A stretch of 64,000 nt of DNA from Clostridia bacterium (GCA_045546695.1 JAZQDE010000015.1:1549-65548); one strand, 5' to 3'; shown: positions 19,599-62,150, numbered from the stretch's first letter. Made by a program: numbers and translations. The notes: a model not told the origin generated them from the letters alone.

Positions 19599-19603
19599 TT
19601 AAT

Positions 19604-22549
19604 TTATTTTATATAGCAAATTAAGAACATCCATGCAATTTCAAGATTTACATTTTCTTTTTCTGCAAACAGGAACATCGGTTCATCAGGATTGCACCAA
19701 CCTGTGTGATTCATATGATTTGTAATAATATACATTAAATCAGCATCAAGCGGATATACCTCTTTTGTCGGATCCATACTTTCAACATATTTCATAAGAC
19801 AATCTGTATAATCTTCCTTTTTAACAAAATTACCGTCTTTGTCATAGAAAAATGCTCTTGCCGGTGATGTTTCAATCATCTTTACATATGAAATGTATGG
19901 AGTATTTTCACCAAGAGATACTAAGGCAACAGGACCATCAGCAGTGCCGATATGGTAGTATCCGTCATTGTCATTAAATACCAGCTTGTAATCATCTGTC
20001 TTGCCTGTAATATCTACGTATGCAAGATTCGCACCTGAAGGAAGTGTATACTTAGGCGGATTCTTGGCAGGTTCGTATATGATATAGTCAATATCTGTTA
20101 TATCTGTCGGAGCTGCACCAATTCTGTTGATAGCGATGACACCGCCTTTATCACCCTGCGCTGCAATTATGTAAATAGCACCGAGGTTGTTTTCCTTGAC
20201 AGTCAATGTAAATGAATTGTTTGACATGTCGGTAGAAGATGTCATATCAGATATAAAGTGAAGGCTTGCACCCATAAAATGGAAGCTTGCATCTGTACTT
20301 GTAAGTGAAATATTGTATATTCCCGAAGCAACCGGCTCGAAAACAAAGTATGTCATCTCGTCACTGAGCTCAACAAACACAGAACCGATTGACAGCCTAA
20401 CAGCATCGCCAACGTAAAGCTCTTCTGTCTGGGTTGATGCTTTAGGAGCAAAGACTATAGTTGTGCTTGTTTTTGATGCAGAAAGTGTGCAGCTACTGCC
20501 TGTGTTATATAACAAATTGCTTCCGGAAACTGTCGGAACTACTGTATAATCGCCTGCTTCAAGAGTAAACTTTACGATACCGTTTGAATTGACATTTCCT
20601 GTATAAACAGTACTGCTGCCCTTCATAACCTTGATGCTTGCATCTGTAATAGCTTTGCCTGTAGCATCTTTGAGCGCAACAGTATATTCTTTGTCAACTT
20701 TCTCAATTACAATCTTTTTGATTTTAATTGTAATACTTGTCTTGTCCTCATCAAGCTCGTATGTCTTAGAATCTGTTACATATCCATCGGGCACCGTAAT
20801 CTTGAAAGTATATTCGCCTTCTTCGCACTCGATAGTAGCAATACCGTCTGCGCCTGTTGTAAGAGACTCAGTAGACTCGCTTGTTTTGAACGAAATTTTC
20901 ACACCTTTTACAGCCTTGCCGTCTTCGTCAGTGATTTTAATCTCATATTCAACAATGTCCGGAACTTCGATTATATCATCATCAACGTCACATTCTACAA
21001 ATGATGTGAGTGAAACAAAATCACACGCCGGATATTTGTTGCCATCATCCGGAAGAGCAGATATTGTAAGCTGAAGAGTGTCACCTACTTTTACAGGAAT
21101 TGTAAGTGTAGTGAGCCCTGTATTGCTGTCCACGACACCGTCATTTGACAATGTCTTATACACATATGAAGTCAGATTATATAACACGTAATCATATGAA
21201 ACGCCTGCTGTTGATGTTTTACATACAATTGTGAAAAATCCTTCTTTATCAGCCACATATGAATAATAAACACCCTGGTCTTTACCCTCCGGCAAAGAAG
21301 TTGAAAACTCACCTAAAATAAGGTCGTATGGATTTGCTGTTGTACCTTCTTCGTTAGCAAACTTTACAACATATTTTTTCTGCTCAGAGGAAGTATTTTT
21401 AAATTGAAGTAATACTGGTGTGAACGTATCTGATGAGAATACCTGTAAAGTAACAGCTCCGTTTTCAGGCTTGAGCGTATCACCGTTGTATACTAACTCA
21501 AAGCTTTCGCCTGTGACAGTCGTAATCATACCGGAAACTTTATAAAAGTTACAATAAATATGACCACCTGCAGGAACATCAATGCTATATTCCATTTCAC
21601 CGCCAAATTCATATGGATTTTGCTCTGTGCCTGATTCTACTTCAACAGTTACAATATCATCGACTTTGTCTACAACCTTCTGAACGTAAGAATCGCTTGT
21701 ATAATATGCAAATATGCCTTTGAAAACTTCATCATCAAGCTCATATCCTTCAAATGCCAGAGTGATCATTCCATAACGGTCAATAACAATTGTCTTTGGA
21801 TATGAATTAATATTGAAAAGTGTTTTCCACGCAGAGTCTCCTCTACCCATCGGGAAAGTAAGTCCGTTATCTTCTTTATACTTTGCAATATCAGATGCTG
21901 TACCATCAACAATATTGATAGCAAGAACCTCAACACTGTCAGAATACTCATTGTAGGCACTCTCAATCATTGGAAATTCCATTCTGCATGGATCACATTG
22001 GATATACCAGAAGTTAAGAATTACTGCTTTTTTATCTTTAAGAATATCTGAAATCTTATGTGTCTTATTGTCAGAATCTGTCAAAGTCAGATCGTAAACA
22101 ATGTCACCCTTACCAAGTATCACACCATCGATGCTGCCCTCAGGGAGCTTTGTTGACAATGTAATTGTTGTTTCATTATCCTTGATCGGATAAACATCAT
22201 CTACAACGTATCCTTTTACAGTATTCTTCAGTACAGCAACAGCATTGTCATCGATTGCGTCGCTGAATGTAATCATGCCGTTTTCATCTGTTCTCTCAAA
22301 TGCTACGAGTTCTTCTTGTGTGCTGTCCGTGTAAATATATACGTCAACGTTTGAAAGAGGCATGCCGCCTTCAGTCTTTACAGTTATCGTATAATCTTCA
22401 ACCTCCGGAACCGGAGTAGCCGTCGGAGCAGCAGTAGGCTTGCTACCTTCGGTGTCGTCATCGCCACATGAGACCATAAGCAGGCACAATGATGCAATTA
22501 TAAGAATCAAAAGAAAAAATACTGATTTTTTATTACGCATAATAATCAC
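19604..22549 (-). CDS. Large lipoprotein: CarbopepD_reg-like domain, TlpA-like thioredoxin domain (CDPC), conserved C-terminal module (981 aa)
   Basis: Lipobox LLMVSCG. KAVILNFWYIQCDPCRMEFP ... YPKTIVIDRYGMI redoxin fold with Cys185/Cys188. The C-terminal region is paralogous to the next two genes and ends WMFLICYIK. Confidence 0.65.
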   Translation of the reverse strand: MIIMRNKKSVFFLLILIIASLCLLMVSCGDDDTEGSKPTAAPTATPVPEVEDYTITVKTEGGMPLSNVDVYIYTDSTQEELVAFERTDENGMITFSDAIDDNAVAVLKNTVKGYVVDDVYPIKDNETTITLSTKLPEGSIDGVILGKGDIVYDLTLTDSDNKTHKISDILKDKKAVILNFWYIQCDPCRMEFPMIESAYNEYSDSVEVLAINIVDGTASDIAKYKEDNGLTFPMGRGDSAWKTLFNINSYPKTIVIDRYGMITLAFEGYELDDEVFKGIFAYYTSDSYVQKVVDKVDDIVTVEVESGTEQNPYEFGGEMEYSIDVPAGGHIYCNFYKVSGMITTVTGESFELVYNGDTLKPENGAVTLQVFSSDTFTPVLLQFKNTSSEQKKYVVKFANEEGTTANPYDLILGEFSTSLPEGKDQGVYYSYVADKEGFFTIVCKTSTAGVSYDYVLYNLTSYVYKTLSNDGVVDSNTGLTTLTIPVKVGDTLQLTISALPDDGNKYPACDFVSLTSFVECDVDDDIIEVPDIVEYEIKITDEDGKAVKGVKISFKTSESTESLTTGADGIATIECEEGEYTFKITVPDGYVTDSKTYELDEDKTSITIKIKKIVIEKVDKEYTVALKDATGKAITDASIKVMKGSSTVYTGNVNSNGIVKFTLEAGDYTVVPTVSGSNLLYNTGSSCTLSASKTSTTIVFAPKASTQTEELYVGDAVRLSIGSVFVELSDEMTYFVFEPVASGIYNISLTSTDASFHFMGASLHFISDMTSSTDMSNNSFTLTVKENNLGAIYIIAAQGDKGGVIAINRIGAAPTDITDIDYIIYEPAKNPPKYTLPSGANLAYVDITGKTDDYKLVFNDNDGYYHIGTADGPVALVSLGENTPYISYVKMIETSPARAFFYDKDGNFVKKEDYTDCLMKYVESMDPTKEVYPLDADLMYIITNHMNHTGWCNPDEPMFLFAEKENVNLEIAWMFLICYIK

Positions 22550-22552
22550 CTA

Positions 22553-23845
22553 TTATTTAATATAGCAGCACATAAATAACCATGAAATGTCATTATTTAT
22601 GCCCGGAATATTGCTTTCGTTTGAATCTTTGAAAAGGTACATTGAATGGTTTGGATCAAACCAGCCACTTGCATCTCCTCTGTTCTGGATAATATACATA
22701 AGGTCGTTTGTAAGCGGATAAACTCCTTCTTTTTCATCAACATTTTCAATGTATTTAAGGAGACATTCACTGTAATCTTCTTTTTTAACAAACTCGCCAT
22801 TTTCATCAAAGAAATATTTTACTACACCTGATGATTCAAGAATCGTCTTGAAAGATGCGAGATATTTGGAATCCTTTGCCAAACGAACAAGTACAAGCGG
22901 ACCATCAGCGCTGTTTAAATGGTAAAATCCGTCATTTTCATTGTAGACAAGCTTGTATGTGTCAGAAGATGCTTTGAGGTCAAAATCAGCCAATGCAGAG
23001 CCTGCAGGAAGAGTATACTTGCCTAATGTAACTGTAGGCTTGTAAATATCCCACGGAACATTTTCATATGAAAATTCAGGTTCACCGACACGTTCTACTG
23101 TGATAATACAATTTTCAATTGCAGTAGCTGAATCGATTCCGACAACAAGTGTCAGAGGTGACGTTGGATCAGGACTAATCATTGAATTATAAACGTTGAT
23201 TGAGAATGATTTTTCGTCCTGAATATCAGCGACATTTGTATCCTGAATGAAATGCGGAGCGCCGTAATAACCGATTTTTGCGTCATCTTTATGGACTGTC
23301 AGCTTGTACAGACCTTCTACAGAAGGCTGGAAAACAAAGTAATTTCTTGTGTTTTCTGTTATCTTTGTGCACAAAGAGCCAATCTGCATAACAGGAGCTA
23401 CGTATTCAGTTTCACCCTTGTAAAGTATTACTGAGTTGCCCGTCAGATTATAAGCAACTGCTACTTCAAGACTTGTAACGTCTGCAGACAATGTAAGATT
23501 GTCTTTTTCATAATAGTAAAGCGTCTCGTCACCTGTAAATTTAAGTGCTACTGTATAATCACCTTTATCAAGATTTTTAATAGCCTTGCCCTCTTCATTT
23601 ACAACCTGCATAGCAATCTGCTCGCCGTCTTTTAAGTAGCTGACAACAACACCATCTGTGAAAGGCTTACCAAGGTAATCTGTAACAGTTACTGTGTAAT
23701 CAGCTGTAGTTTCAATCTCCTGTGTCGGTGCCGGAGTCGAATCAGTTGACGATTCATCTCCGCCGCATGAACACAAAACTGCTGCGCAGCATATAAGCAG
23801 CGCAGCAATAAGCATAATTTTACCAATAAAATTATTATTTTTCAT
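22553..23845 (-). CDS. Lipoprotein paralog (430 aa) with CarbopepD_reg-like domain and the shared C-terminal module; no thioredoxin domain
   Basis: Lipobox VLCSCGG. The C-terminal ~150 aa align with the 981-aa protein (FYHLNSADGPLVLV ... KKEDYSECLLKYIEN ... WLFMCCYIK). Confidence 0.6.
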   Translation of the reverse strand: MKNNNFIGKIMLIAALLICCAAVLCSCGGDESSTDSTPAPTQEIETTADYTVTVTDYLGKPFTDGVVVSYLKDGEQIAMQVVNEEGKAIKNLDKGDYTVALKFTGDETLYYYEKDNLTLSADVTSLEVAVAYNLTGNSVILYKGETEYVAPVMQIGSLCTKITENTRNYFVFQPSVEGLYKLTVHKDDAKIGYYGAPHFIQDTNVADIQDEKSFSINVYNSMISPDPTSPLTLVVGIDSATAIENCIITVERVGEPEFSYENVPWDIYKPTVTLGKYTLPAGSALADFDLKASSDTYKLVYNENDGFYHLNSADGPLVLVRLAKDSKYLASFKTILESSGVVKYFFDENGEFVKKEDYSECLLKYIENVDEKEGVYPLTNDLMYIIQNRGDASGWFDPNHSMYLFKDSNESNIPGINNDISWLFMCCYIK

Positions 23846-23862
23846 TTATATCTCCTTCATTT

Positions 23863-26682
23863 TCACTGGCCAAGATAATCGTAGTAGTAACATAACTTGA
23901 GCCATCCGAATTCAACACTGTAATCCATCGGGTTTACATATTTATCAGCAAGAAGCTGGAGAATCTCAGCAAGTTGCTCATCTACCGCAACGCAGCCATT
24001 GATTTCTTTGTCGGATCCGTCAATAATCTTATTTACATATGATTTGATTATATCTGTATAATCCTTGCCTTTACCATGATACTGACCGTTCAATACTTCT
24101 TCAAGTTTATACTCTTCAGCGTAAATCTCATACAATTCACCCCAGAGGTCTTTTAAGTATTGGATTGTCTTATCCTTATCTCTGCCATTCTTTTCAAAAT
24201 ATGAAATGATTACCTGATCGTAATCCGTCTTGCTGAAATCAAATCCACCCATATCAATGATACCCTTGATATCACCTTGTGTGACAAACGGTACATTCAT
24301 TACTGTAACACCTGTAAAGTCAGCATAAATCTTGCTTCCGTAAATCTGCTTGCCGTTGCTGTCTTTACCAAGATCGTGATAATAGTAACCATCATCGCCA
24401 AGTACAACGTCAATACCGCCGCTGATTGTATCATACATGTGCTCACCTGTAGCATCTGTATCGTATGTGTAATATCCGGGAGAAGCTACTCTGAAGTAAT
24501 CAAACTCGCTGCCAAGATATTCAATATCAAACGGAATATAACCTACTCTATAAACGTCCCAGAAAGCAATGTTGATGTAGTACGGTGTGCCTGCCTCCAT
24601 GTAATATACGATAGATACGTTATTTGCATCGCCATACAATCTCTCACAATACTCATAAGTCATAAGTATCTCATGATTATCATTAAAGAGCCATGCCTCA
24701 ACGCCTTCTGGCGCTGTTGAGTTTGAAGTAATTCTATAAACGCCTGACTTCTTCGGAACGAACTTTCTGAGTGTACCTCTTGGAATAATTACTCTGTCGT
24801 AGTAGAAGTAATTCTCTTCAAGTCCCTTACCTTCAAATACTTCGGGAGCTGAGAATGGAGTAAGTCCCTGAATCGGGTCAACGAGCTGTTTGTTTCCATC
24901 CGGACCATATACTTCATAATAACGACAAATCTTGAGCCATTCATCTGGTGTGTTATCGAAACCGAATACACCGGCTACTTTTTTGAGAATCTCTGCGAGC
25001 TCTTCGTTAACTGTACATACACCATTCAATGATGAGTTTGATGCGAAGTTGAGATATTTAAGAATCTCATCATAAAGATCTTTGCCATCAACAACAACAT
25101 TTTCACCATAAAGCAATGTGTAAATTGACTTTTCATCGTTGAAAATAGTCAGGTTCATCAGATTAGCAAGAAGGAGCGGGCCATTTTCTGAGCCGACGTG
25201 GTAATAACCATCTTTGTTGTTGAAATAAATATCTATATAATCAAATGAACCATCAGCATTTTCAGTTGCAGGAAGTCTTGGAATATATGATTCTACGTCG
25301 ATATCTTTTGCGTCAACAACTCTCATGTTTGAAATATAAACCGTATCGTCACCATTGTTTGTTGAATCGTCTTTAGAATATACTAAAGCAAGTTCATACG
25401 TACCATCTTCTATAGCTACCCATGGATAACAAGAAGACCATCCGTCGCTTCCTGACGAGCCTGAAACCTGATAAATGTCTTCTCTTTGAACAACTACAAA
25501 AAGAACGTCATTTATTTCTTCTGTTGAAACGATGTAATCAAAAGCGATTGCCTGTCCTGCTTTGAGTTCGATATCGGCGTAAATTGCTGAATACGAAGCT
25601 TCTATACCCTTATTTGATGAGTAAATACATTTTCTGCCATCCTTTTCACCGATAATGAATGGCCAGGCATATTCTGCGTTTGCACTCTCTGTCTCAGGTC
25701 TGTAAGTTACGTTGATAGAGCCTGAGTTAATTGCATTACCGATATTTTCAGATGTGTCCATTGTCTTGTCAGGCTTCTGAAGTGTCACAAATTCGCTGAT
25801 ACTGGAAGCAATCTTCTGCTTATAATCGTCTGCTGTGAAATAATCAAACAGACATGTGAAAGGTCTGAGGCTTGTAATTGCACCAACTTCTACGAGACAG
25901 ATAACGCCATATCGGTCAATCATCACAGATGTCGGATATGAGTTTACTGAGAACGCCTGAGCAAGTGTATATTGACAAGGAGCCATCTTGAATGTAAGAC
26001 CTCTTTGCTGCTGATAATTTTTAACTGCAGCCGCTGTATCCATAGGTGATACAGCAATTATCTCAATATCATCTTGGTACATCTCATATGCTTGTTGCAT
26101 ATAAGGGAATTCAAGCTCACAAGCAGAACAACCATCATACCAGAAGTTAAGCAGAACAGCTTTTTTTGTTTTGAGGACCTCTGAAAGTGTAACCTGCGCT
26201 CCGTCTGATGTTGTTACTGTTAAATCATACATAACGTCTCCGGCTTTGAGAGAAACAGAACCTGAAAGATCTTCTTTAACAACAGAAGATGATAATGTAA
26301 TCAGTGCAGTGTTGCCGGTGAAAGAATAATATGGCTCAACGTCATATCCTTTTGGAAGACCTCTGACTTCAACAGCGTATGAGTTACTTACAGGAAGTTC
26401 AAAACTTACAAAACCAAGTTCGTTTGTCTTGCCATACTGTTTGAGGTCTGAGAGTGTATTGTCGGCGTATACGTAAACGTCTACGTCAGCAAATACTCTG
26501 CCGGCAAATGATTTGATGCTAACGTCGTATGCTGCTTTTTCTCCGTTATTATCCGTAGTACCTTGCGTAGGTGCAGCCGTAGCATCTGTCTTATCCGATG
26601 AATTATCGCCACAGCCAACAAACACTGCCGCAATCAGACACACGGATAGAATAATTGCGATTGTTTTCTTTAAAATAGTCAT
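23863..26682 (-). CDS. Large lipoprotein: CarbopepD_reg-like domain, TlpA-like thioredoxin domain (CSAC), two copies of the conserved C-terminal module (939 aa)
   Basis: Lipobox VFVGCG. KAVLLNFWYDGCSACELEFP ... YPTSVMIDRYGVI. An internal module ends WLKICRYYEVYG and the C-terminal module ends WLKLCYYYDYLGQ. AAAGGTGAGGAA RBS. Confidence 0.65.
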   Translation of the reverse strand: MTILKKTIAIILSVCLIAAVFVGCGDNSSDKTDATAAPTQGTTDNNGEKAAYDVSIKSFAGRVFADVDVYVYADNTLSDLKQYGKTNELGFVSFELPVSNSYAVEVRGLPKGYDVEPYYSFTGNTALITLSSSVVKEDLSGSVSLKAGDVMYDLTVTTSDGAQVTLSEVLKTKKAVLLNFWYDGCSACELEFPYMQQAYEMYQDDIEIIAVSPMDTAAAVKNYQQQRGLTFKMAPCQYTLAQAFSVNSYPTSVMIDRYGVICLVEVGAITSLRPFTCLFDYFTADDYKQKIASSISEFVTLQKPDKTMDTSENIGNAINSGSINVTYRPETESANAEYAWPFIIGEKDGRKCIYSSNKGIEASYSAIYADIELKAGQAIAFDYIVSTEEINDVLFVVVQREDIYQVSGSSGSDGWSSCYPWVAIEDGTYELALVYSKDDSTNNGDDTVYISNMRVVDAKDIDVESYIPRLPATENADGSFDYIDIYFNNKDGYYHVGSENGPLLLANLMNLTIFNDEKSIYTLLYGENVVVDGKDLYDEILKYLNFASNSSLNGVCTVNEELAEILKKVAGVFGFDNTPDEWLKICRYYEVYGPDGNKQLVDPIQGLTPFSAPEVFEGKGLEENYFYYDRVIIPRGTLRKFVPKKSGVYRITSNSTAPEGVEAWLFNDNHEILMTYEYCERLYGDANNVSIVYYMEAGTPYYINIAFWDVYRVGYIPFDIEYLGSEFDYFRVASPGYYTYDTDATGEHMYDTISGGIDVVLGDDGYYYHDLGKDSNGKQIYGSKIYADFTGVTVMNVPFVTQGDIKGIIDMGGFDFSKTDYDQVIISYFEKNGRDKDKTIQYLKDLWGELYEIYAEEYKLEEVLNGQYHGKGKDYTDIIKSYVNKIIDGSDKEINGCVAVDEQLAEILQLLADKYVNPMDYSVEFGWLKLCYYYDYLGQ

Positions 26683-34996: not shown

Positions 34997-36796
34997 TTAT
35001 TCGGAGTCTGTAACGTCCTCTTTGTTGATTGAAATATGTAAATCTTTTACCTGGATATCATCAACAAAGTCAGGTGCACCTGACATGAGACATGATGCAT
35101 TCTGTACCTTCGGGAAAGCAATTGTGTCTCTGATATTTGTAGCACCTGCCATAAGCATACAGAGTCTGTCAAGACCGTATGCCATACCACCATGAGGTGG
35201 TGTGCCGTATTTGAATGCTTCAATAAGGAATCCAAAACGCTCTGCAACGTCTTCATCTGAAAGACCGAGAGCTTTGAACATTCTGCTCTGAAGTTCGCTG
35301 TCGTGGATTCTTATGCTGCCGCCGCCAAGTTCGTAACCATTGAGTACGATGTCGTATGCTTTGGCACGTACTTCGCCCGGAGCTGATTCAATCTTGTCAA
35401 TATCCTGTTCCATCGGAGATGTGAAAGGATGGTGAACAGCAACGTATCTGTTCTCTTCTTCTGAAAATTCAAATTGTGGGAATTCTGTAATCCATAAAAA
35501 GGCAAATTCGTCTTGAGGAATCAAGCCGAGTTTGTCTGCAAGTTCGCATCTTAAAGCGCCCAGAACGGTGTAAACAACGCTTGTCTTGCCTGAAACGATA
35601 CAAATAAGGTCGCCTGCCTTTGCCTGGCATTTAGCGATCACAGCGTTAATTTCGTCCTGTGTCAGAACTTTACCCAATGAAGATCTGATTTCATTATTTT
35701 CACCGACAACTATCCATGCAAGACCGCTGCCGCCGTGAGTCTTGACAAACTCGCCCAACTTGTCAATTTCTTTTCTTGAATAGTGACCTGCCGGGAAGCA
35801 TACAGCCTTAACCGCGCCGCCGTTTGCAATAGAATCGCTGAACACCTTAAATCCACATCCTGCAAGAGTATCAGCAAGGTCGATAAGCTCATAGCCGAAT
35901 CTTACGTCAGGCTTGTCAGAACCATATTTTTCCATTGCATCAAAATATGACATGCGCATAAACGGAGCTTTGAGCTCTACGCCAAGTACTTCTTTGAAAA
36001 CTCTTACCATAAAGCCTTCGTTGATTGCGATAACGTCATCAATATCAACGAAAGACATTTCAAGGTCTATCTGTGTAAATTCAGGCTGTCTGTCAGCTCG
36101 CAGGTCTTCATCGCGGAAGCACTTTGCAATCTGCATATATCTGTCAAAACCTGCCACCATGAGAAGCTGTTTGAAAATCTGTGGTGACTGTGGAAGTGCA
36201 TAGAATTTTGAAGGATGTACGCGACTTGGAACAAGATAGTCTCTTGCGCCTTCAGGCGTGCTCTTTGTAAGAATCGGTGTCTCAACTTCAATAAAGCCAT
36301 TTTCATCGTAATAGTCTCTTGCAATCTTTGCAATCTTGTGACGCATGAGAATAACGTTCTGCATTGACGGACGTCTTAAATCAAGATATCTGTACTTAAG
36401 ACGATTTACATCACTGATATTTGCTTTGTCTTCAATGTGAAAAGGTGGAAGTTTTGCTTCGTTGAGTACAACAACTTTTGTAACTTTAACTTCTATCTCA
36501 CCTGTTTTCATATCTTTGTTTATATCAGCTTCATTTCTTGCGCAAACGAGGCCTTCAACAGCCAGTACGTATTCATTTTTTACATTTGCTGCAAGTTCGA
36601 AGAGCTCTTTATCTGTCTCTTCGTTGAAGAAAAGCTGGATGCGTCCCGTTCTGTCGCGGAGCCATATAAACATAAGTCCACCGAGGTTACGTACTTTTGC
36701 AACCCAACCTGTAAGTACTACGGTCTGTCCTGCGTTTTCTTTCGTAACTTCGCCGCAGTAATTTGTTCTTTTTATACCATTCATGAACTGTGCCAT
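34997..36796 (-). CDS. aspS: Aspartate--tRNA ligase
   Basis: N-terminal anticodon-binding OB fold, class II motifs, 599 aa. GGAAGG RBS 7 nt before the ATG at 36796. Confidence 0.95.
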   Translation of the reverse strand: MAQFMNGIKRTNYCGEVTKENAGQTVVLTGWVAKVRNLGGLMFIWLRDRTGRIQLFFNEETDKELFELAANVKNEYVLAVEGLVCARNEADINKDMKTGEIEVKVTKVVVLNEAKLPPFHIEDKANISDVNRLKYRYLDLRRPSMQNVILMRHKIAKIARDYYDENGFIEVETPILTKSTPEGARDYLVPSRVHPSKFYALPQSPQIFKQLLMVAGFDRYMQIAKCFRDEDLRADRQPEFTQIDLEMSFVDIDDVIAINEGFMVRVFKEVLGVELKAPFMRMSYFDAMEKYGSDKPDVRFGYELIDLADTLAGCGFKVFSDSIANGGAVKAVCFPAGHYSRKEIDKLGEFVKTHGGSGLAWIVVGENNEIRSSLGKVLTQDEINAVIAKCQAKAGDLICIVSGKTSVVYTVLGALRCELADKLGLIPQDEFAFLWITEFPQFEFSEEENRYVAVHHPFTSPMEQDIDKIESAPGEVRAKAYDIVLNGYELGGGSIRIHDSELQSRMFKALGLSDEDVAERFGFLIEAFKYGTPPHGGMAYGLDRLCMLMAGATNIRDTIAFPKVQNASCLMSGAPDFVDDIQVKDLHISINKEDVTDSE

Positions 36797-36830
36797 GATT
36801 TACACCTTCCTTGTTGAATTTAACCTATAT

Positions 36831-36859
36831 ATTTTAAGGCAGAAGGCGATTTATGTCAA
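36831..36859 (-). promoter_or_regulatory. Putative sigma-A promoter for aspS
   Basis: Minus strand: TTGACA, 17-nt spacer, TAAAAT, about 30 nt upstream of the aspS RBS. The leader is too short for a T-box. Confidence 0.45.
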
Positions 36860-36910
36860 TTTATTTGGTGAAAAGATAAGTAATTATTACGTCGATTCCA
36901 GCAAAAAAAA

Positions 36911-36933
36911 GAACCGTGAATTAATCACGGTTT
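36911..36933 (-). terminator. Rho-independent terminator after the 1607-aa gene
   Basis: Stem AACCGTGA / TCACGGTT with loop ATTAA. An A8 run lies on the plus side (a U-tract on the minus strand) and TTTTCTTTT on the other side. It sits 14 nt past the stop. Confidence 0.65.
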
Positions 36934-36946
36934 TCTTTTAGTTTGT

Positions 36947-39900
36947 TTAACCAAGCATATTCGGAAGAACATAGCTTATCGTATATGCATTACCTTGTTT
37001 CGTATAGATTGTTACGGATAACTGAGCAACACCCGACCCGGTAAGTTCAACAGTACATTCACCTGCTACGTTGTCAATAATTTTAACTACATTAACATTG
37101 CTTGATGACCATGTACAATAATCTATTTCTTCACCATAAGAAGTATTAACAGTAACCGGAACAATCTGGCCAACACTCCAGTTGTCTTCATCAACTAAGA
37201 TATTACCAATATAAACACGTGACTCAGACTGATCATCTTCTGATTTTTCAATACGATATGCATGTGATCCAGACTTTATAATATTATCAACATAGAAGTA
37301 ACCGGCAAATTCATCATCCACGAAATAACCAACATACTCATTTATTTCGCCTTTGTTTGTGATTATAATGATCTTATCCTCAGAAATAAAGTATAAGTTT
37401 TTATCGTTATCAACCGCATACAATGAGTCGTAATCCAAAGAGGTCATCTCGGAATAGATTGGTTCATTCTCCTCGTTTACATCTAATTTTAATACAACAA
37501 TTTTACCATCTTTTATATTAATAATAAAATCATCACCATCAACAAATACCTGTTCGCCATCTGAATCATACACAATATTGCCATCATCGTCTGCTTTAAC
37601 AAGATGCTTATCAGATAAATCTAATTTATACAGTGCTGAATATATCTTGTTTTCTTCATTTACCTCAAGAATAAAGAACAATTGATTACCGTCAGAACCA
37701 TATTTGTTATACTGTTTTTGAGTCAATTCAACAAAAAACTTAACTGTATCGCCAACTATATGTTCAGATTTATCGTCATCCATAATAATTTCAGCTGATT
37801 CGATCTTATCATAAATTGTTAACTTCTTTTCAACTTTAAGGACAACACCATTTTTTGTAAGTACAATAGCATTAATTGTCGCTTCTCCTGTTTCACCGGA
37901 TGTATGCATAATTGAAGATGCAAAATCAACACTGTTTGTAACATTCAGAATTTCAGAGCCTAATGGTAAAGTATGAAGAATCGTGTTATATTCTGTTACT
38001 TCTTTCAGCCCGTACTTTTTCAATTGTTCATTAATGCTGTCTATTAATGATTGTGCATACTCCTTGGTAGCGGTCACACCTGATTCAGATGAAAGAATCG
38101 ATTCTATTTCTGCAATTATCTCTTTTAATTTCGCAAAAGTATCCTCTTCACCTTCTTCGGGTACAACGTCAATACCTTCGATTGTCTTTGCATTGTTAAC
38201 AGCGGTTGTCAACACTATTCTTTGATCTTCTGTCATAGCCTCTATCTGGGCAGATTCAACAGCCTTACCACCGCAAGCAACGATATTATTGTTCAGCTTT
38301 TCAAGAAGTACCTGTGCACTTTTTTGTGAGAGGTCTTCTATGGTTGTTGAGTTTGCTTCAGAAACAACAGCTTTAATAGCATCTAAATTCTCAACTGGCA
38401 AGGCGGCTTCCTCACCGGCAGCTTCATTTTCAGCAATAATTGCCTCAGCTCTGTTGATAGCCATATTTAATAACTCAATCTGATCATCTGTTATTGCTTT
38501 GTATTCAATTAAAGCAATCTCGTCCATGTCATAAGCTACCAATTGTTCATTTATCGATGAGAATAATTCATACGCTTCGATTATCTTGAACTGTTCATCA
38601 TTTCTTGCCACGTAGTTAGTTGCTTCACCAAGAAGGTCAGCAAGTTCAGCAAATTCTTCGTTTTCATTTGAATATCCTTCAATTTCTGTTGCTTTATGAA
38701 TTGCAGCAAGAAGTAATGATCTCATTTCGTCATTTGTTAAAGCCAAAGCCTCCAATTGCTTATTTGCATTGTCAATTACAGCTTCCAGTCTGGTAATCTC
38801 TGCGATAGCTTCTTCTCTTGTTGGTGTTTCAAGAATATTGTCTGTTCCTTTTTCAAGTAACTCAACAGCGGATGCATACTGTTCAGGATCTACGCCCAGC
38901 TCTTTTGCAATGTCAATCATTTGAGCAAGGTAGATTTTCTGTTTGCTGTCAATTGATAAAACTAACTTCGTTCCTGAGTTCCAGTGAACAGCCAATATTT
39001 CTTCTGTTTTCAAAGACGCATAAATTTCGCTCTTAAGCTTGACAACAGGAGAAATAATACTTGAAATATTTTCAATAAATTCATCTTGTTCAATATATGC
39101 AATTTCAGCAGGTTTTGCTTTTGCATCCAATTCAAGAATTCTTAAATCGGAAATAACCTTTTTAAAGCTCTCATCATACCACTTTCCGTATGTATCTTCT
39201 TCGTTGCTGATTGCAAAATAATATAACGCACCTTCGTAATCATATGGCAAATAGAAAACATTACGTTCGAGTGCTTTATACGCAAGATCCAGAGCAGTAA
39301 GAGCATTATTTACTCTTTCAAAATTTGCAACAGAATCAAACTCAACCAATGATTCTGCATCGTATAATGCAGCGGCAAGATTAGACCAACTTTCATTCGT
39401 ATAAACTACAGATTTAACACCGTTGCCCTCATCTTTAAGATTTTTTTCATAATTAACTCTGAAAATAGTTGCAACGTTTTTATCTTTGTTTTCCTCAGTA
39501 TATTCACTCAATGATTTTATGGATCCAGACTCTTCGTCATATATAACATAACGTGCTATATCATCTGAAGTTCCCATAAATTCACGCATTTGTGCAACAG
39601 CATTCTGAAGGGCTTCAATTGATATTTCTTCTAATGCCTGTGCCGTAGCAACAAGCTGTTTATTTGCAATGTAAACCTGAGTACTATTAACTGTAATCTC
39701 TTCAGATTCAACGATTGATTTAGCATACTCATAGGCCTCAGCAAATGCAGTCCATGATACAGTAGTATACATCTTCTGACCATTATCATATGTTTCTTTA
39801 TTAGTTTCGACAGCTTGATTTAAACCGCTGATATCTGTCGAAAGATATTGTAATGCATTGTTATCTGCAGGAATAAGATCTGCACTGCTTGCAAACTGTA

Positions 39901-41770
39901 AATTGAGTGTGCCGTTTAAAGAAGTTTCAGATTCGGCAGATACCATTGTGTTGTCTACCACGTCACCGTCAAGCCATACGAGGACGGTAATAGCTTTTGC
40001 AACATTCTGGTCCAAAGAAACAATCTTATTGTCAAATTTGCGACGCTCACCCATTATCATAGCGCCTTTATCCTCTTCTTCTTCACTGATTTCATAATCG
40101 TAAATATATAAAGGAGCCTTGATTGTCTTGCTGCCTACAACTCTGTTACTCATATTTAATTTCGCAACACATAATATATTTCCCTGGTCATCAATAAATG
40201 CAACTCTCAATGCATCCATAAGCTTTGTAGCTTGTTCAAGAGAATAATCAGCATTAGCTCTGGAAAATTCCATAAAACTACCACCACCAAGTGTAGTTGG
40301 CGAAGCTGAATCTTCGTATATTCTTTGCATTGCATCAGTCTGTAATAATAAATCGGAAATAGGTGCATTACATCTGAAAGCCAGGTCAATGGCATAACCA
40401 TAAGTTGATGAAATATTGTAATCTCTTCCGGCAGAATCCTCTGAAACTGACAATTTATCTATTTTATCACTGATAACACTTAAATAGTTCGGATTCACCT
40501 GAGAAAGCGTTCTTATGGTTATATCCATAATTCCAAACTTAATATTGGAAGAGTAATCACCTGTAAAATCAGAAATGTCGGCCAGAACACCGGAGCCGGA
40601 ACTCAAAGTTACTTCAATAAAATCTGAATTCATCAATCCGGCAATATCTTCCGAAGTCATCTGATTGTATTTAACATCGCCTATAAAAATCTGATCCATG
40701 TTGATTAAAATATCCAATGCAGAGCGCAACTCAGACCATGTATATTCTCCACCGGTCAATAATTTCAACTGATTGTTTGCCTGATTAAGGTCATTCTGCA
40801 ACTCAGTAAATGTGTTAATCCATGTCATATCAAAATCATCCGGCATTGAAATTTCAAGAGATTTTAAAATACCATCAATATTCTTGTCTGAATCTGAAAT
40901 CAGATTTCTTAAAGCTATAAAGTCACTTTCGCTTTCCGAAACAGAAGCACAGTAAGCAATAAGTGTTTGTCTCATCGCAAGATCTATATAATCAACTGAA
41001 ACCTGCAAATCAGATATCATAGATTCCAGCACCTGGATATCCGAATCACTATATATGTCGTTTCCGGACGAAGTGGCATGTTTAATTAATAAATTAAACA
41101 AATCTGAACCGTGTCGTTGTAAAATAGCGCTTGTATTGCTGTTTGCATTATTTGAATATGTTTTAATATTGCTTTTTGCCAACGCAATAGCACTGTCACG
41201 TACACTGATTGTATCAGCTGTTCCTATTGCTCTTACCCCATAATCCTGAATATTTGAATATGAGAATGTGGAATTTTTATAGATAGCTGAAAAAGTATTA
41301 TCTGTCAGATCAATAATACGGCCATCATATCCATATGTTGGAACTGAAAGCATACCTGTGTTTACGCTATATCCTCCACCTGTCTTTTTAACAGAATTTA
41401 ATCTCGAGGGAAGCAAAACAATATTATTTAATCCGTAGCTCTCATCTGTAAGATCAATGAGATTTCCCCATGTATTATTTGCGGCAGTTACTTTATTTGC
41501 CAGAGACTGTCCTATCGCAGTTTTAATCTGGCTTAAGTCCTGTCTGGTCTTCGTATTCAACAATGCTATCTCCAAGCTACCATTTGAACCAATATTGGTA
41601 TTAATACCTGTTACTTCAGGAGCAATTGACATTGTCAGCCACGCATAACCGGCAACAACTACAAGAATCAGGGAAATTAATAGCATTGCAAACGCAGCTA
41701 ATAATTTGCTTTTTACTTTTTTATGAGATTCTTGTTTTTTTTCCGTTTTTTTCATAACAAATACCCTCAC
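36947..41770 (-). CDS. Giant secreted protein (1607 aa) with a SipW-cognate-like N-terminal signal region, alpha-helical/coiled-coil segments, FIVAR-like repeats and a beta-rich C-terminus
   Basis: N-terminus KKVKSKLLAAFAMLLISLILVVVAGYAWLTMSIAPEVTGINTNIGSNGSLEIALLN resembles TasA/CalY-type signals (GGTWAAFND ... GTLDL). Residues 1-640 are paralogous to the upstream 612-aa protein. YTTVSWTAFAEAY ... NSTQVYIANKQLVATAQAL matches FIVAR-type repeats. Confidence 0.5.
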   Translation of the reverse strand: MRVFVMKKTEKKQESHKKVKSKLLAAFAMLLISLILVVVAGYAWLTMSIAPEVTGINTNIGSNGSLEIALLNTKTRQDLSQIKTAIGQSLANKVTAANNTWGNLIDLTDESYGLNNIVLLPSRLNSVKKTGGGYSVNTGMLSVPTYGYDGRIIDLTDNTFSAIYKNSTFSYSNIQDYGVRAIGTADTISVRDSAIALAKSNIKTYSNNANSNTSAILQRHGSDLFNLLIKHATSSGNDIYSDSDIQVLESMISDLQVSVDYIDLAMRQTLIAYCASVSESESDFIALRNLISDSDKNIDGILKSLEISMPDDFDMTWINTFTELQNDLNQANNQLKLLTGGEYTWSELRSALDILINMDQIFIGDVKYNQMTSEDIAGLMNSDFIEVTLSSGSGVLADISDFTGDYSSNIKFGIMDITIRTLSQVNPNYLSVISDKIDKLSVSEDSAGRDYNISSTYGYAIDLAFRCNAPISDLLLQTDAMQRIYEDSASPTTLGGGSFMEFSRANADYSLEQATKLMDALRVAFIDDQGNILCVAKLNMSNRVVGSKTIKAPLYIYDYEISEEEEDKGAMIMGERRKFDNKIVSLDQNVAKAITVLVWLDGDVVDNTMVSAESETSLNGTLNLQFASSADLIPADNNALQYLSTDISGLNQAVETNKETYDNGQKMYTTVSWTAFAEAYEYAKSIVESEEITVNSTQVYIANKQLVATAQALEEISIEALQNAVAQMREFMGTSDDIARYVIYDEESGSIKSLSEYTEENKDKNVATIFRVNYEKNLKDEGNGVKSVVYTNESWSNLAAALYDAESLVEFDSVANFERVNNALTALDLAYKALERNVFYLPYDYEGALYYFAISNEEDTYGKWYDESFKKVISDLRILELDAKAKPAEIAYIEQDEFIENISSIISPVVKLKSEIYASLKTEEILAVHWNSGTKLVLSIDSKQKIYLAQMIDIAKELGVDPEQYASAVELLEKGTDNILETPTREEAIAEITRLEAVIDNANKQLEALALTNDEMRSLLLAAIHKATEIEGYSNENEEFAELADLLGEATNYVARNDEQFKIIEAYELFSSINEQLVAYDMDEIALIEYKAITDDQIELLNMAINRAEAIIAENEAAGEEAALPVENLDAIKAVVSEANSTTIEDLSQKSAQVLLEKLNNNIVACGGKAVESAQIEAMTEDQRIVLTTAVNNAKTIEGIDVVPEEGEEDTFAKLKEIIAEIESILSSESGVTATKEYAQSLIDSINEQLKKYGLKEVTEYNTILHTLPLGSEILNVTNSVDFASSIMHTSGETGEATINAIVLTKNGVVLKVEKKLTIYDKIESAEIIMDDDKSEHIVGDTVKFFVELTQKQYNKYGSDGNQLFFILEVNEENKIYSALYKLDLSDKHLVKADDDGNIVYDSDGEQVFVDGDDFIINIKDGKIVVLKLDVNEENEPIYSEMTSLDYDSLYAVDNDKNLYFISEDKIIIITNKGEINEYVGYFVDDEFAGYFYVDNIIKSGSHAYRIEKSEDDQSESRVYIGNILVDEDNWSVGQIVPVTVNTSYGEEIDYCTWSSSNVNVVKIIDNVAGECTVELTGSGVAQLSVTIYTKQGNAYTISYVLPNMLG

Positions 41771-41784
41771 TATCCATGTAAAAA

Positions 41785-43623
41785 TTAATTGTCTATAATT
41801 GGTATATCCGCAGGTTTAAGACTTGCGTCAGTTGAAAATTGTAGATTTAATGATCCGGTTAAGCTGTTAAGGCTTGTTGCCGCCAATGAATTATCAACGT
41901 GATCTCCATCAAGCCAGACAACAACAGACAAAACGGATACAGTGTTCTTTGTAAGTTCTGTAATAATTCTATCCTCCGATAACCTTTCACCTATCGAAAT
42001 GCTACCATCTATTGATACTTTAAAATCATATAGATACAAAGGAGCTTTAACCTCAGAATCATCTATATAATAATTACTTACGTTCAACTTTGCAATACAA
42101 AGTAAATCATTATGGTCATTAATGAATCCAATTCTGAATGCATCCATCATCGTCACAATTTGCTCCTGATTCAGCTGTTCCGATGAAAAACTCATGTTAC
42201 TACCGTGACCTTCTATAATACTGTCAGTGGAATTATCAACTCTTACATCCGGCATAGTCTGCAACAGTAAATTGCAGCCAATGTTGGATCTGAAAGCCAA
42301 ATCAACAACATAACCAAATAAATCGTTAATTTCATATGTTGTATTTTCACTGTCTTCTTCAATTTCCATGCCATCTAATGCTTTGGCAATTATTTCGAGA
42401 TGTCCCGGGGAATTTTTTGATAATGTCACAAGTTCGATGCTAATATCTGTCGTATAATCAAAGAAAATATTATAATTACCACTATAATCTGCAATAAGAG
42501 CTAAAGACGCTGCCTCAGATGTCAAAGTCATAAGAGTATCCTCAGTAAGCGATTCTTCAGAAGTGGCAGAAAGCTTCGTCTCATTTATAAAAACTTCACC
42601 AGAAGGAATAATAAGATTAAGTAGATGTAAAATCTCTGTTCCGGAATAATTGTTTCCCGACATTAGATTACAAGCAGAAATTACTTGTTGTAAATTTCTT
42701 TTCTCATTATCTACCTTTGAAACCATATCTTTGATATTGCCCGGAATTGTCGCAGGCATGTAATCAAGAATCTGCGTTAATGGAATCATAGTATTTCCCA
42801 AGGTGTCACATAACTGATTGAATATATCTACATCGCCGATGCTTGTTGCACTATATCCTATTATTGCCTGTCGTAACGCAAGATCCAGGTAACTTACTGC
42901 ACCAAGTAATCTGGTTGTAGTATCCTGAATAGTGGCAACATCTTTATTATCAAACATATTCTGACTATCTGACAGTGCATCGAAATAAATAGCAAACAAA
43001 TCAGCAAAATTAGACTTTACCATTGATTCAACAGCTCTTATTGATGAAGTACGATATGATCTGATTGCTGATTTACTATTTGCAAGGGCAGCTTTTTGAG
43101 GCGAAACGTCGGATGCCCGTCCAATGCACCTGACACCATATTTTTGATTACCTGTATTATAAATAAATTTACCATCCGAAAAAATCGTAGTAACAGTATC
43201 TGAGTTCAAATTAACAAATCTTCCGTCTGTATCATATTCCGGATACGAGAGCAAACTATTTCCTATACTGTTTGTTCCATCAATATTTGGGCGAACATTC
43301 AATCGCGACGGCTTAAGAGTAATTTTATGTAACCCATACTCTTCCGGGCTTAAATCAATCAGATTACCCCATGTAATATTTGAAACAGTAATGTTGTTTG
43401 CCTCCATAGAAGAGCCGATATGATTTTTAATAAGAGATGGATCAATATATGTTTTTTCATTTAAAAGTGCAATTTCGAGGTTACCATTTGAGCCAATATT
43501 AGTATTAATTCCTGTTACTTCAGGCGCTAATGACATCGTTAACCATGCGTATGTAGCCGAAAGCAACAAACACAAGCAGGAAACAAGCATTATAACAACC
43601 AAAAATATTTTTCTTTTATACAT
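41785..43623 (-). CDS. Secreted protein (612 aa), paralog of the N-terminal 640 aa of the downstream giant protein, with a SipW-cognate-like signal region
   Basis: LLSATYAWLTMSLAPEVTGINTNIGSNGNLEIALLN. The central and C-terminal blocks are shared (VKAPLYLYDF ... VVWLDGDHVDNS ... SLNLQFS). A 14-nt gap to the next gene suggests co-transcription. Confidence 0.5.
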   Translation of the reverse strand: MYKRKIFLVVIMLVSCLCLLLSATYAWLTMSLAPEVTGINTNIGSNGNLEIALLNEKTYIDPSLIKNHIGSSMEANNITVSNITWGNLIDLSPEEYGLHKITLKPSRLNVRPNIDGTNSIGNSLLSYPEYDTDGRFVNLNSDTVTTIFSDGKFIYNTGNQKYGVRCIGRASDVSPQKAALANSKSAIRSYRTSSIRAVESMVKSNFADLFAIYFDALSDSQNMFDNKDVATIQDTTTRLLGAVSYLDLALRQAIIGYSATSIGDVDIFNQLCDTLGNTMIPLTQILDYMPATIPGNIKDMVSKVDNEKRNLQQVISACNLMSGNNYSGTEILHLLNLIIPSGEVFINETKLSATSEESLTEDTLMTLTSEAASLALIADYSGNYNIFFDYTTDISIELVTLSKNSPGHLEIIAKALDGMEIEEDSENTTYEINDLFGYVVDLAFRSNIGCNLLLQTMPDVRVDNSTDSIIEGHGSNMSFSSEQLNQEQIVTMMDAFRIGFINDHNDLLCIAKLNVSNYYIDDSEVKAPLYLYDFKVSIDGSISIGERLSEDRIITELTKNTVSVLSVVVWLDGDHVDNSLAATSLNSLTGSLNLQFSTDASLKPADIPIIDN

Positions 43624-43684
43624 ATATTACCTCAGAACCACACAAAAACAGGCATATACATTTTTTTCACACGAAATCTTTAAC

Positions 43685-43713
43685 ATTCTATTACAAAAAA
43701 GCAAACAAATCAA
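43685..43713 (-). promoter_or_regulatory. Putative sigma-A promoter for the tandem secreted-protein genes
   Basis: Minus strand: TTGATT, 17-nt spacer, TAGAAT, in the malQ-to-612aa gap. Confidence 0.35.
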
Positions 43714-43721
43714 GATGCATA

Positions 43722-45161
43722 TTAATTATTGAATCTCCAATATACCTCATTGAGCTTTCTGAAATATCCTTTATCAATCGAATCAAGTTGCTCTTTTGTA
43801 ATTCTGTATGCCCAGTTGCCTTCTGCCCTGCCCGGCGTGTTTACACGGGTATCGCTGCCGTAACCGAGCAAATCCTGAATGGGCATAACTACCAGCGATG
43901 CATTGCTTGCAAACATGCATCGTATGATACTCTTAAGACCATCTTTCCAGTCACCGACATGACCGCAATAATCAAGCATTCTCATTCTGGTTGCATCATC
44001 AAGTTCCCATAAATAGCCAAGAAGCGTGTTATTGTCATGTGTGCCGGTATATGCAACGCAGTTTTCACAATAATTGTGTGGAAGATGCGTACTGTTATCA
44101 TTCGAAATAAAGCCAAACTGGAAAACACGCATTCCCGGGAAACCGCTTTTCTTTACGAGTTCGAATACTTCGGGCGTAATATCGCCAAGGTCTTCGGCGA
44201 TAATCTGAGTCTTTTTACCGGCAGCCTTTTTGATTGCCTTAACAAGATTCATACCGGGGCCTTTGATCCATTTTCCTTCTTTTGCAGTTTTGGATTCTGC
44301 GGGTATTGACCAATATGATTCTATACCTCTGAAATGGTCAATTCTCACAGCATCAAAAAGCTCAGCCATGTGCTTTATCCTGTCGGACCACCATTTATAA
44401 CCATCTTTTTCCATTTCATCCCAGTCATATAATGGATTGCCCCAGAGCTGACCATCTTCGCAGAAGTAGTCAGGTGAAACACCCGCTACGTTAAGAGGGT
44501 ATCCTTTATTGTCAAGCTGGAACATCTTTTTGTTGCTCCATACGTCAGCGCTGTCTGTTGAAACATAAATCGGAATATCACCAATTATTTTTATTCCTTT
44601 ACTGTTGGCATAATCCTTTATGCTTTTCCACTGAGTGTAGAATTCATATTCTATAAATTGCCATGTGAAAAGAATGTCATCATTCCGCTTATTTACAGTC
44701 CACTCCTGCCACGGCATGCCAGAATTTGCCTCTTTTAATGCCATAAAATGACAAAAACTATTAACGTACGGCATAGACTCTATGTACTTCACAACCGGCT
44801 TTCTGTCAGACACACGCATTGCCGCTTTTTTAAGAAGAGAAAAACGTTCTGTCGACAACCGGTCAAATTCACAAAGATATGGCGACTCTTGTTTTGCACC
44901 GGCAAGCTCCGCCTCTGTCAGCAAGCCCTTTTTGAATAATATATCGAGATCGACAAAATATGGATTGCCACTGAATGCCGAATAAGATTTATACGGAGAG
45001 TTATGTTCATCAATTACACAGAATGGAAGAACCTGCCAATAAGAAAACCCACATTCTGAGAGAAAGTCTATAAAATATATTGCATTATCTCCGAATGAGC
45101 CTGACTGATAATCGCCAAACAGCGAAGAAACATGCATTAAAACACCACTTTTACGTTCCAT
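43722..45161 (-). CDS. malQ: 4-alpha-glucanotransferase (amylomaltase, GH77)
   Basis: GVLMHVSSL ... WQVLPF ... SPYKSYSAFSGNPYFVDLD N-terminal signature and DIPIYVSTDSADVW catalytic region. Confidence 0.85.
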   Translation of the reverse strand: MERKSGVLMHVSSLFGDYQSGSFGDNAIYFIDFLSECGFSYWQVLPFCVIDEHNSPYKSYSAFSGNPYFVDLDILFKKGLLTEAELAGAKQESPYLCEFDRLSTERFSLLKKAAMRVSDRKPVVKYIESMPYVNSFCHFMALKEANSGMPWQEWTVNKRNDDILFTWQFIEYEFYTQWKSIKDYANSKGIKIIGDIPIYVSTDSADVWSNKKMFQLDNKGYPLNVAGVSPDYFCEDGQLWGNPLYDWDEMEKDGYKWWSDRIKHMAELFDAVRIDHFRGIESYWSIPAESKTAKEGKWIKGPGMNLVKAIKKAAGKKTQIIAEDLGDITPEVFELVKKSGFPGMRVFQFGFISNDNSTHLPHNYCENCVAYTGTHDNNTLLGYLWELDDATRMRMLDYCGHVGDWKDGLKSIIRCMFASNASLVVMPIQDLLGYGSDTRVNTPGRAEGNWAYRITKEQLDSIDKGYFRKLNEVYWRFNN

Positions 45162-62118: not shown

Positions 62119-62150
62119 ATACTGTTAAGAATACTTAACAGTATTTTTTT
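62119..62150 (+). terminator. Rho-independent terminator for the ROK kinase gene
   Basis: Stem ATACTGTTAAG / CTTAACAGTAT with loop AATA, followed by T7. Confidence 0.6.

Follow-up and report, generated by a model that had tools for sequence, protein, structure and literature searches.

A 64,000-nucleotide stretch of a Clostridia bacterium genome (GCA_045546695.1 JAZQDE010000015.1:1549-65548; hereafter the window, with positions counted from its first letter) carries on its minus strand, between positions 36947 and 43623, two adjacent genes, one short and one long, whose products probably belong to a hitherto undescribed system of surface fibres or adhesins. On balance, the evidence favours an explanation in which both proteins would be exported by the Sec pathway, cut by a SipW-type signal peptidase at a cognate signal of a separate class, and used as surface fibre or adhesin components. 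A sequence-only reading of the window had described the pair as tandem giant paralogs with N-terminal regions of the kind that marks the SipW substrates TasA and CalY. The paralogy and the signal anatomy stand, and a link to SipW was found in an operon of a sister branch of the family, but the signal model TIGR04088, the family model PF12389, a TasA profile and structure searches with Foldseek all speak against a TasA-type assignment.

Both open reading frames (ORFs) lie on the strand and at the positions that this reading had given, as ORF calls and translations confirm. The short gene (41785..43623, minus strand) starts with ATG and encodes 612 residues, and an identical copy of its product (P0001) is present in a public collection. 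The long gene (36947..41755, minus strand) had been assigned 1607 residues, which is the length of its maximal frame only: that frame extends to 41770 and begins with GTG, five codons (window 41756-41770) 5' of the probable ATG. Because the ATG at 41755 (MKKTEKK...) is preceded at 9 nt by GAGGG, and because a called 1602-aa product (P0502) exists on the same public contig, the long protein is most likely 1602 rather than 1607 residues long.

The short and long genes are indeed paralogs in tandem. In a BLASTP alignment of 623 columns (E = 2e-121), positions 3-606 of the short protein and 20-636 of its long partner are 38% identical, which bears out the proposed relationship between the entire short protein and the N-terminal part of the long one. 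The duplication is old and the pair has been retained, rather than being the product of a recent event, because the short and long genes are kept together in many genomes. The near-identical N-terminal motif that had drawn attention to the pair, YAWLTMS(L/I)APEVTGINTNIGSNG(N/S)LEIALLN, is also borne out: it differs at 2 of 31 positions between the two proteins, and in both of them a hydrophobic core of 16 residues and, ahead of that core, a basic n-region come before it.

The predicted signal peptide of the short protein (residues 1-26; 43546..43623, minus strand) has an n-region KRK, an h-region I6-L21 and a c-region SATYA, whereas that of the long protein (41642..41755, minus strand) ends in VVAGYA. 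Judged from this pattern, the putative cut sites (marked ↓) are A26↓W27 in the short protein and A38↓W39 in the 1602-aa long protein (A43↓W44 in the 1607-aa numbering). A logo built from 155 distinct N-termini anchored on the Trp, including 93 distinct large family members, places both sites in a strict family pattern. The consensus of the large proteins reads K-K-L-x-A-A-x-A-M-L-L-V-(A/S)-x-I-M-x-V-S-S-(T/S)-Y-A ↓ W-(F/L)-T-L-S-T-A-P-E-V-x-G-I-x-T-x-V-G-A-N-G-x-L-E-(I/M)-A-L. In the 93 large members, Ala at -1 and Trp at +1 are found in 100% and Thr or Ser at -3 in 97%; P at +7, N-G at +19/+20, and L and E at +22/+23 are each found in 100%. In the small paralogs, which are described below, the Trp at +1 is unchanged, while -1 is occupied by Thr or Ala and -3 by Ser or Thr. 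The layout is a canonical n-h-c arrangement with a 5-residue c-region, the +2 residue is F or L, and the site pattern T/S-Y-A↓W-F/L fits the -3/-1 rule. The segment that follows the predicted cut, W27-N55 (WLTMSLAPEVTGINTNIGSNGNLEIALLN; 43459..43545, minus strand), is the most conserved of the family, with a mean top-residue frequency of 0.78 versus 0.40-0.56 elsewhere. It would form the N-terminus of the mature protein and is a candidate donor or recognition strand.

For the 612-aa protein, 346 relatives of ~600-1000 residues were scored, almost all of them metagenomic. Essentially none has a Pfam domain, and the few that are named are called 'hypothetical protein' in metagenome-assembled genomes (MAGs) of Oscillospiraceae. 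With clustering at 50% identity, an exhaustive profile search yielded 2237 clusters at E <= 1e-3, of which 1301 remain at E <= 1e-30. Neither the full proteins nor their N-terminal fragments had a significant match in Pfam or NCBIfam, and the literature searches made found no paper describing the family. One genome per GTDB species was scanned for the family, and 80 of 168 matches were kept. The 77 loci obtained all come from MAGs of gut and rumen Oscillospiraceae and other Clostridia. They divide into two groups. Group A (L004-L025), with 34-59% identity to the window protein, comprises the counterparts of the window pair; in at least 15 of these loci, a short gene of ~615 codons is followed directly by a long paralog of 1077-1715 residues, and the loci have nothing in common except the pair itself. 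Group B members, with 26-31% identity, are embedded in a conserved operon that is present in most of the related gut and rumen Clostridia.

The reference for this operon of about 11 genes is L001:6288-21968, and the same layout occurs in ~45 other loci (e.g. L027-L080). It encodes, in order, an SH3_3 protein (g0), an HD_5+EAL protein that passes both Pfam thresholds (g1), a 361-aa membrane protein, jelly-roll-like and ending in WLEGDDPDC... (g2), the large family member (g3), a 330-aa paralog with the N-terminus ...SYTWFSLSRTPRVSDM (g4), a first SipW-type signal peptidase (g5), a membrane-anchored AAA_5-like ATPase with a weak Pfam match and, by eye, McrB-like motifs (g6), a coiled-coil protein of ~600 residues (g7), a 440-aa paralog with the N-terminus ...SYAWLTISxNPVxTGIQVSIGGGNTI (g8), a second SipW-type signal peptidase (g9) and a protein of >620 residues (g10). 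At least four otherwise diverged proteins of the operon share the mature N-terminal motif (S/T)Y(A/T)↓W(F/L)(T/S)(L/I)S..P.V. Homology of g4 to the window family extends over its first 110-150 residues (98.1% probability in hhalign, E = 1e-13), and a weak colinear match follows at the C-terminal end, where WLEGQDVDC...IQF of g4 faces WL(D/E)G..D...(L/I)QF of the family. The HD_5+EAL protein suggests that the operon is under the control of cyclic di-GMP, a form of control that is common for matrix and pilus systems.

Both peptidases of L001 pass TIGR02228, the model of archaeal-type (S26B) signal peptidase I, with 85.7 and 79.6 bits (cutoff 51.85), and also match NF046067 (SipW). Their catalytic Ser (SMxP), His (THR) and GDxN..D box are kept in both peptidase groups across the loci. 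SipW-like ORFs are present in 50 of the 81 sequences examined, and their positions follow those of the motif-bearing genes closely. A peptidase gene lies within a few tens of bases 3' of g4 in all 45 loci that have enough downstream sequence. For g8, a strict distance criterion puts a peptidase gene directly 3' of it in 37 of 40 loci, and in the remaining three the peptidase ORF overlaps g8 by 61-85 bases. The window-type pair is itself found next to the operon in some genomes, immediately upstream of it in L016 and on its downstream side in L018 and L020; seven or more further MAGs have the pair and the operon on different contigs, so that at least 10 genomes carry both, a lower bound given the 80 of 168 matches kept and the incompleteness of MAGs. 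The first two steps of the favoured explanation rest on these observations. Sec export of the window proteins would be expected because their signals have the n-h-c anatomy, and a cut at A↓W by a dedicated SipW-type peptidase, presumably encoded elsewhere in the genome, would be expected because the site is invariant and because substrate and peptidase genes are so tightly paired in the relatives.

An AlphaFold2 model of the 612-aa protein, computed from a 46-sequence alignment, has an average predicted local distance difference test score (pLDDT) of 84.9 and a predicted TM-score of 0.84. A helix formed by residues 2-31 runs without interruption through the proposed cut site and is followed by two short strands (36-45 and 50-53). 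The model is less certain around the start of the mature protein (pLDDT 66-67 in residues 21-40), and so is the monomer model of the small paralog. According to DSSP, the remainder is beta-rich at ~88-169, largely helical at ~175-420 and again beta-rich at ~429-598. The first beta-rich part comprises residues 56-170 (43114..43458, minus strand); it contains the invariant WGN and DGR motifs and is homologous to the small operon paralogs. The mainly helical part (residues 171-425; 42349..43113, minus strand), with model helices 175-218, 226-261 and 295-320, is absent from the small paralogs and is taken to be an insertion because the small paralog aligns only to the N- and C-terminal parts that flank it. 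The second beta-rich part (residues 426-600; 41824..42348, minus strand) carries FGYxxDLAFR, WLDGDxVDN and LNLQF, and its invariant columns are D441, R445, N447, D572, G573, N578 and N593-F596. Within it, WL(D/E)G(D/Q)xVD(N/C) followed by G.LNLQF (residues 568-596) is conserved throughout the large family and in g2, g4 and g8 of the operon. This motif looks like an acidic, possibly Ca2+-binding loop, and by eye it also resembles the C-terminal ...DDGKDQNIFQGDSLNLEWTF of CalY.

In the long protein, the family module (residues 44-636; 39863..41641, minus strand) is paralogous to the whole short protein and is found by the family profile with E = 4e-207 (hmmsearch). It is followed by a C-terminal extension of ~970 residues (36950..39862, minus strand), helical and repeat-like at first and beta-rich at its end, which is proposed to be a stalk or adhesin part. 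A Pfam and NCBIfam scan of the window copy in three pieces and a search of PDB sequences gave this extension no match. Among the equivalent extensions of 22 homologs, however, FIVAR domains were found in 5, BspA-type leucine-rich repeats (LRR_5) in 3, Big_2 in 3 and DUF285 in 2; all four are domain types common in bacterial surface proteins and adhesins. Compared with the sequences in the PDB, neither this extension nor the profiles of the family and of the small paralog gave more than helical matches at chance level.

A number of results weigh against the favoured explanation, and most of them concern TasA. The first check that the sequence-only reading had proposed for its SipW-cognate signal, a scan with TIGR04088 (a 34-position signal model with a cutoff of 19 bits), was negative: at E <= 10 there was no match in the full proteins, in their N-terminal fragments, in the family consensus or in the N-termini of the small paralogs, whereas the positive controls matched with 38-41.6 bits (TasA) and 53.6 bits (N-terminus of CalY). 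The signal of the window proteins is placed outside the described SipW-cognate class because of this miss. Neither protein matched PF12389 or TIGR04090, nor TIGR04087, TIGR04089 or NF046066. A TasA profile, for which the TasA sequence was checked against 8AUR and 5OF1 and 32 members of the PF12389 family were aligned, gave an hhalign probability of 9.5% (E = 0.0034) with the window family and of 1.3% with the small paralog; with a single TasA sequence in place of the profile, hhalign gave no match to the family. The low-probability alignment (9.5%) sets SYAWF over GTWAAF and GANGNLEIAL over AAGTLDL. The likeness to the TasA pattern holds for the small residues at -3 and -1, for the aromatic residues at P1' and P2' and for the register that had been proposed, which was recovered at that probability.

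Structure comparison points the same way. Foldseek found no PDB structure with E < 1e-3 for the model of the 612-aa protein and placed TasA outside the top 50; the top matches, all non-significant, are a HopQ helical-bundle fusion, BoNT Hc and GH16 jelly rolls, and a search of viral structures with the same model also returned nothing with E < 1e-3. The model of the small paralog (pLDDT 78.7) likewise has no significant PDB match, with TasA again outside the top 50. Its second and third ranks among 350,542 chains are 7pnb, a thread subunit of Sulfolobus (probability 0.75, E = 0.036), and 7ueg, the bundling-pilus subunit AbpA of Pyrobaculum (E = 0.041, non-significant). All Foldseek matches have E > 1e-3, and their TM-scores do not exceed 0.33. 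Both 7pnb and 7ueg are donor-strand filaments, and AbpA is an acknowledged homolog of TasA (PMC9245690; PMC9715654). A relationship of the family to TasA could not be shown. Two further points concern the signal and the peptidase. Several h-region positions are conserved to a degree that is unusual for a disposable signal (K-22 91%, M-15 86%, L-14 92%). Furthermore, as the sequence-only reading had noted, no SipW-like gene is found in the window (64 kb, ORFs >=70 aa, searched with a hidden Markov model (HMM) built here), and most window-type pairs have no SipW-like gene within 10 kb.

The alternative that survives these results best, doubtful as it is, is that the proteins are secreted and processed but do not polymerise, i.e. 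that they are monomeric adhesins or binding proteins with a fold unrelated to that of TasA, whose conserved N-terminus serves only peptidase recognition and the folding of their own beta-sandwich. The lack of a significant profile or Foldseek link to TasA or to other donor-strand filaments fits this, and in the model the N-terminal strands 36-45 and 50-53 pack into the protein's own beta structure. However, the self-packed model is not evidence against strand exchange because monomeric TasA self-complements (PMC9674648). At least four diverged operon proteins have the mature N-terminal motif in common, and TasA and TapA behave alike in this respect: cleavage of TasA exposes an N-terminal strand, which in the fibre is inserted into the following subunit, and TapA has that sequence too (PMC9674648).

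It is unlikely, and somewhat more so, that the hydrophobic segment is an uncleaved signal anchor, so that both proteins would be type II membrane proteins and the related peptidases would process only the small paralogs or other substrates. Several h-region positions are conserved well beyond generic hydrophobicity, which would also suit a retained membrane anchor; the helix 2-31 of the model spans the proposed cut site, and there is no sipW near the window pair. Without processing or recognition, however, it is hard to explain why the -3/-1 pattern and the Trp at +1 are invariant in large and small members alike. Peptidase genes are moreover paired with motif-bearing genes in 45 of 45 and ~40 of 40 loci. 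A conserved helix and a later cut could also be reconciled by the model proposed for BsaA of Clostridium perfringens, which involves donor-strand exchange and in which the signal peptide retains the subunit in the membrane, to be cleaved off once assembly takes place (bioRxiv 10.1101/2024.11.04.621531).

Less probable still is that the housekeeping signal peptidase I (LepB type) cleaves the window proteins like any other Sec substrate, which would make both their resemblance to SipW substrates and the operon link of their distant relatives irrelevant to the pair. Having A at -1 and T/S at -3, the n-h-c signal also meets the general rule for signal peptidase I; the window contains no sipW, and TIGR04088 has no match in the proteins. 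Yet window-type and operon-type members do not differ in the motif around the site, at least 10 genomes carry both the window-type pair and a SipW operon, and bulky aromatic residues at P1' and P2' are reported to disfavour LepB: a Phe at P2' makes TasA a poor LepB substrate, and TasA is cut by SipW (PMC10269814). That the pair encodes type IV pilin-like or sortase-anchored surface proteins is effectively excluded by sequence. With pilins, the likeness is superficial and lies in the conserved hydrophobic helix at the N-terminus, behind which a globular domain follows: neither the two proteins nor the family logo has a G↓F/M-x-x-x-E site before the helix, the conserved operon encodes no prepilin peptidase or pilus ATPase, and there is no LPXTG or C-terminal anchor (the C-termini are ...KPADIPIIDN in the short and ...ISYVLPNMLG in the long protein).

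The favoured explanation, i.e. Sec export followed by a SipW-type cut, thus takes the signal to be a separate SipW-cognate class that TIGR04088 fails to capture. In its third step, cleavage would expose the conserved N-terminal strand. With lower confidence, and by analogy with TasA and TapA, the exposed N-terminus may act as a donor or docking strand that joins the window proteins to a fibre of operon subunits, and the long paralog may display its variable C-terminal extension outward as a stalk or adhesin. Polymerisation of the window proteins into fibres would likewise follow from this analogy. Indirect support for strand donation comes from the mature N-terminus, which is better conserved than any other segment, is common to several operon proteins and is modelled less confidently in the monomers. 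More tentatively, the pair and the operon could form one undescribed filament system of gut and rumen Oscillospiraceae, in which dedicated peptidases would cut at least four motif-sharing subunits that then join via their conserved N-terminal strands, while the pair, which can be encoded away from the core operon, would supply an accessory adaptor and a tip adhesin.

Among known systems, one close comparison is with TasA/CalY (PF12389) and the tapA-sipW-tasA operon of Bacillus. The window family resembles these proteins in a signal of the Sec type, which has small residues at -3/-1 and a cut followed by aromatic residues, in a G-x-L-(D/E)-(L/I) strand soon after the cut, in a beta-rich core and in an ...N/Q..G..L.LQF-like end; at the level of the operon, an archaeal-type peptidase gene next to family members and a mature N-terminus common to several operon proteins are shared. 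The window proteins differ in being 2.3 to 6 times larger than TasA, in a helical insertion of ~250 residues, and in having no PF12389 or TIGR04088 match and hhalign probabilities of at most 9.5%. Unlike the Bacillus operon, the related operon has two peptidases as well as genes for an AAA_5-like ATPase, a coiled-coil protein and an HD_5+EAL protein, and the window pair itself does not adjoin a peptidase gene. The sipW-bsaA-bsaB-bsaC operon of C. perfringens is similar in being a clostridial SipW operon for diverse secreted proteins, one of them large, that are thought to share a peptidase, but the window family has neither a match to TIGR04090, the model of BsaA, nor a von Willebrand factor A (vWA) domain like that of BsaC, a 70-kDa vWA protein. 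A BsaA-like Asn-Glu-Lys isopeptide triad was set aside because the family columns contain no invariant Lys. The archaeal subunits AbpA (7ueg) and Saci_0406 (7pnb) share beta-sandwich folds, processing by signal peptidase I and N-terminal strand donation with the arrangement considered here; archaeal signal peptidase I is of the same type as SipW. They are, however, only ~180-200 residues long and have no helical insertion, their match to the small paralog is non-significant, and the 612-aa model does not match them.

As to the layout of the pair in the window, the two genes are co-directional with a spacing of 14-29 nt. A promoter-like site (TTGATT, 17 nt, TAGAAT; 43685..43713, minus strand) lies in the 98-bp gap between malQ and the pair; it is a consensus match only, and such sites are not commoner in the region than in shuffled sequence. 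A terminator-like hairpin with a T-run (36912..36932, minus strand) lies 15 nt 3' of the stop codon of the long gene. The upstream promoter-like site, the short spacing and the hairpin with its T-run after the second stop suggest that both genes form one bicistronic unit. Tandem DNA repeats within both genes are negligible.

The surroundings are a chromosome segment of the Clostridia/Oscillospiraceae type with ~40% G+C, in which nearly all genes are on the minus strand and which also encodes SpoIIP, LepA, AspRS, MalQ, MutS2, the alpha subunit of DNA polymerase III, S9/L13 and TsaE/TsaB. The G+C content of both genes is 0.356-0.367 versus 0.41-0.43 in the flanks (window 36001-44000), and the neighbours of the pair are not syntenic in any related genome; conserved synteny was rejected, as MalQ, AspRS, ABC-F and MutS2 have no counterparts near the pair in other genomes. 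Amino-acid composition is one possible cause of this; another is that the pair was inserted among housekeeping genes.

Another large surface protein of the window, a 2409-aa secreted subtilase (9736-16965, minus strand), combines Peptidase_S8 with PA, Fn3-like and Big_2 domains and seven BspA-type LRR_5 stretches; it clustered with some long family paralogs, possibly via shared LRR-type domains. The ORF after it (8417-9739, minus strand), 440 aa long and lipoprotein-like, has no clear domain. Four consecutive lipoprotein-like ORFs of 939, 430, 981 and 147 residues (19155-26682, minus strand) include two with an NFWY..C..C thioredoxin-like motif and three that share a C-terminal region ending in ...CYIK or similar. 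Divergent from them is a gene for a membrane protein with 4Fe-4S and Redoxin domains (17505-19037, plus strand), and the genes at 17505-26682 may constitute an extracytoplasmic redox module. Near the end of the window, a 606-aa ORF without a Pfam match (62149-63969, minus strand), whose N-terminus may be incomplete, carries one hydrophobic anchor, at its C-terminus, as well as repetitive segments that look like a beta-helix (...ITITGEG..., ...ISGCKVSIYG...).

Oscillospiraceae abound in the gut and rumen, most of them have not been cultured, and very little is known of their cell-surface structures; no relevant paper was found when the literature was searched for SipW in connection with Oscillospiraceae, Ruminococcaceae or rumen. 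SipW-dependent secreted matrix and fibre proteins are known as a kind. What is new here is a putative cognate-signal class missed by the curated model, subunits of 600-1700 residues with a helical insertion and modular tails, a two-peptidase operon with extra components, and a conserved short and long pair detached from it. The family of at least 1,300 sequence clusters is unrecognised by current domain libraries and is tied to dedicated archaeal-type signal peptidases; the existing SipW signal model misses the class of their signals, so that annotation pipelines name its members merely hypothetical. If the proteins are indeed fibres or adhesins, they would be candidates for attachment to host tissue, feed particles or other cells, and chaperone-free assembly of the TasA kind would extend to much larger, modular subunits.

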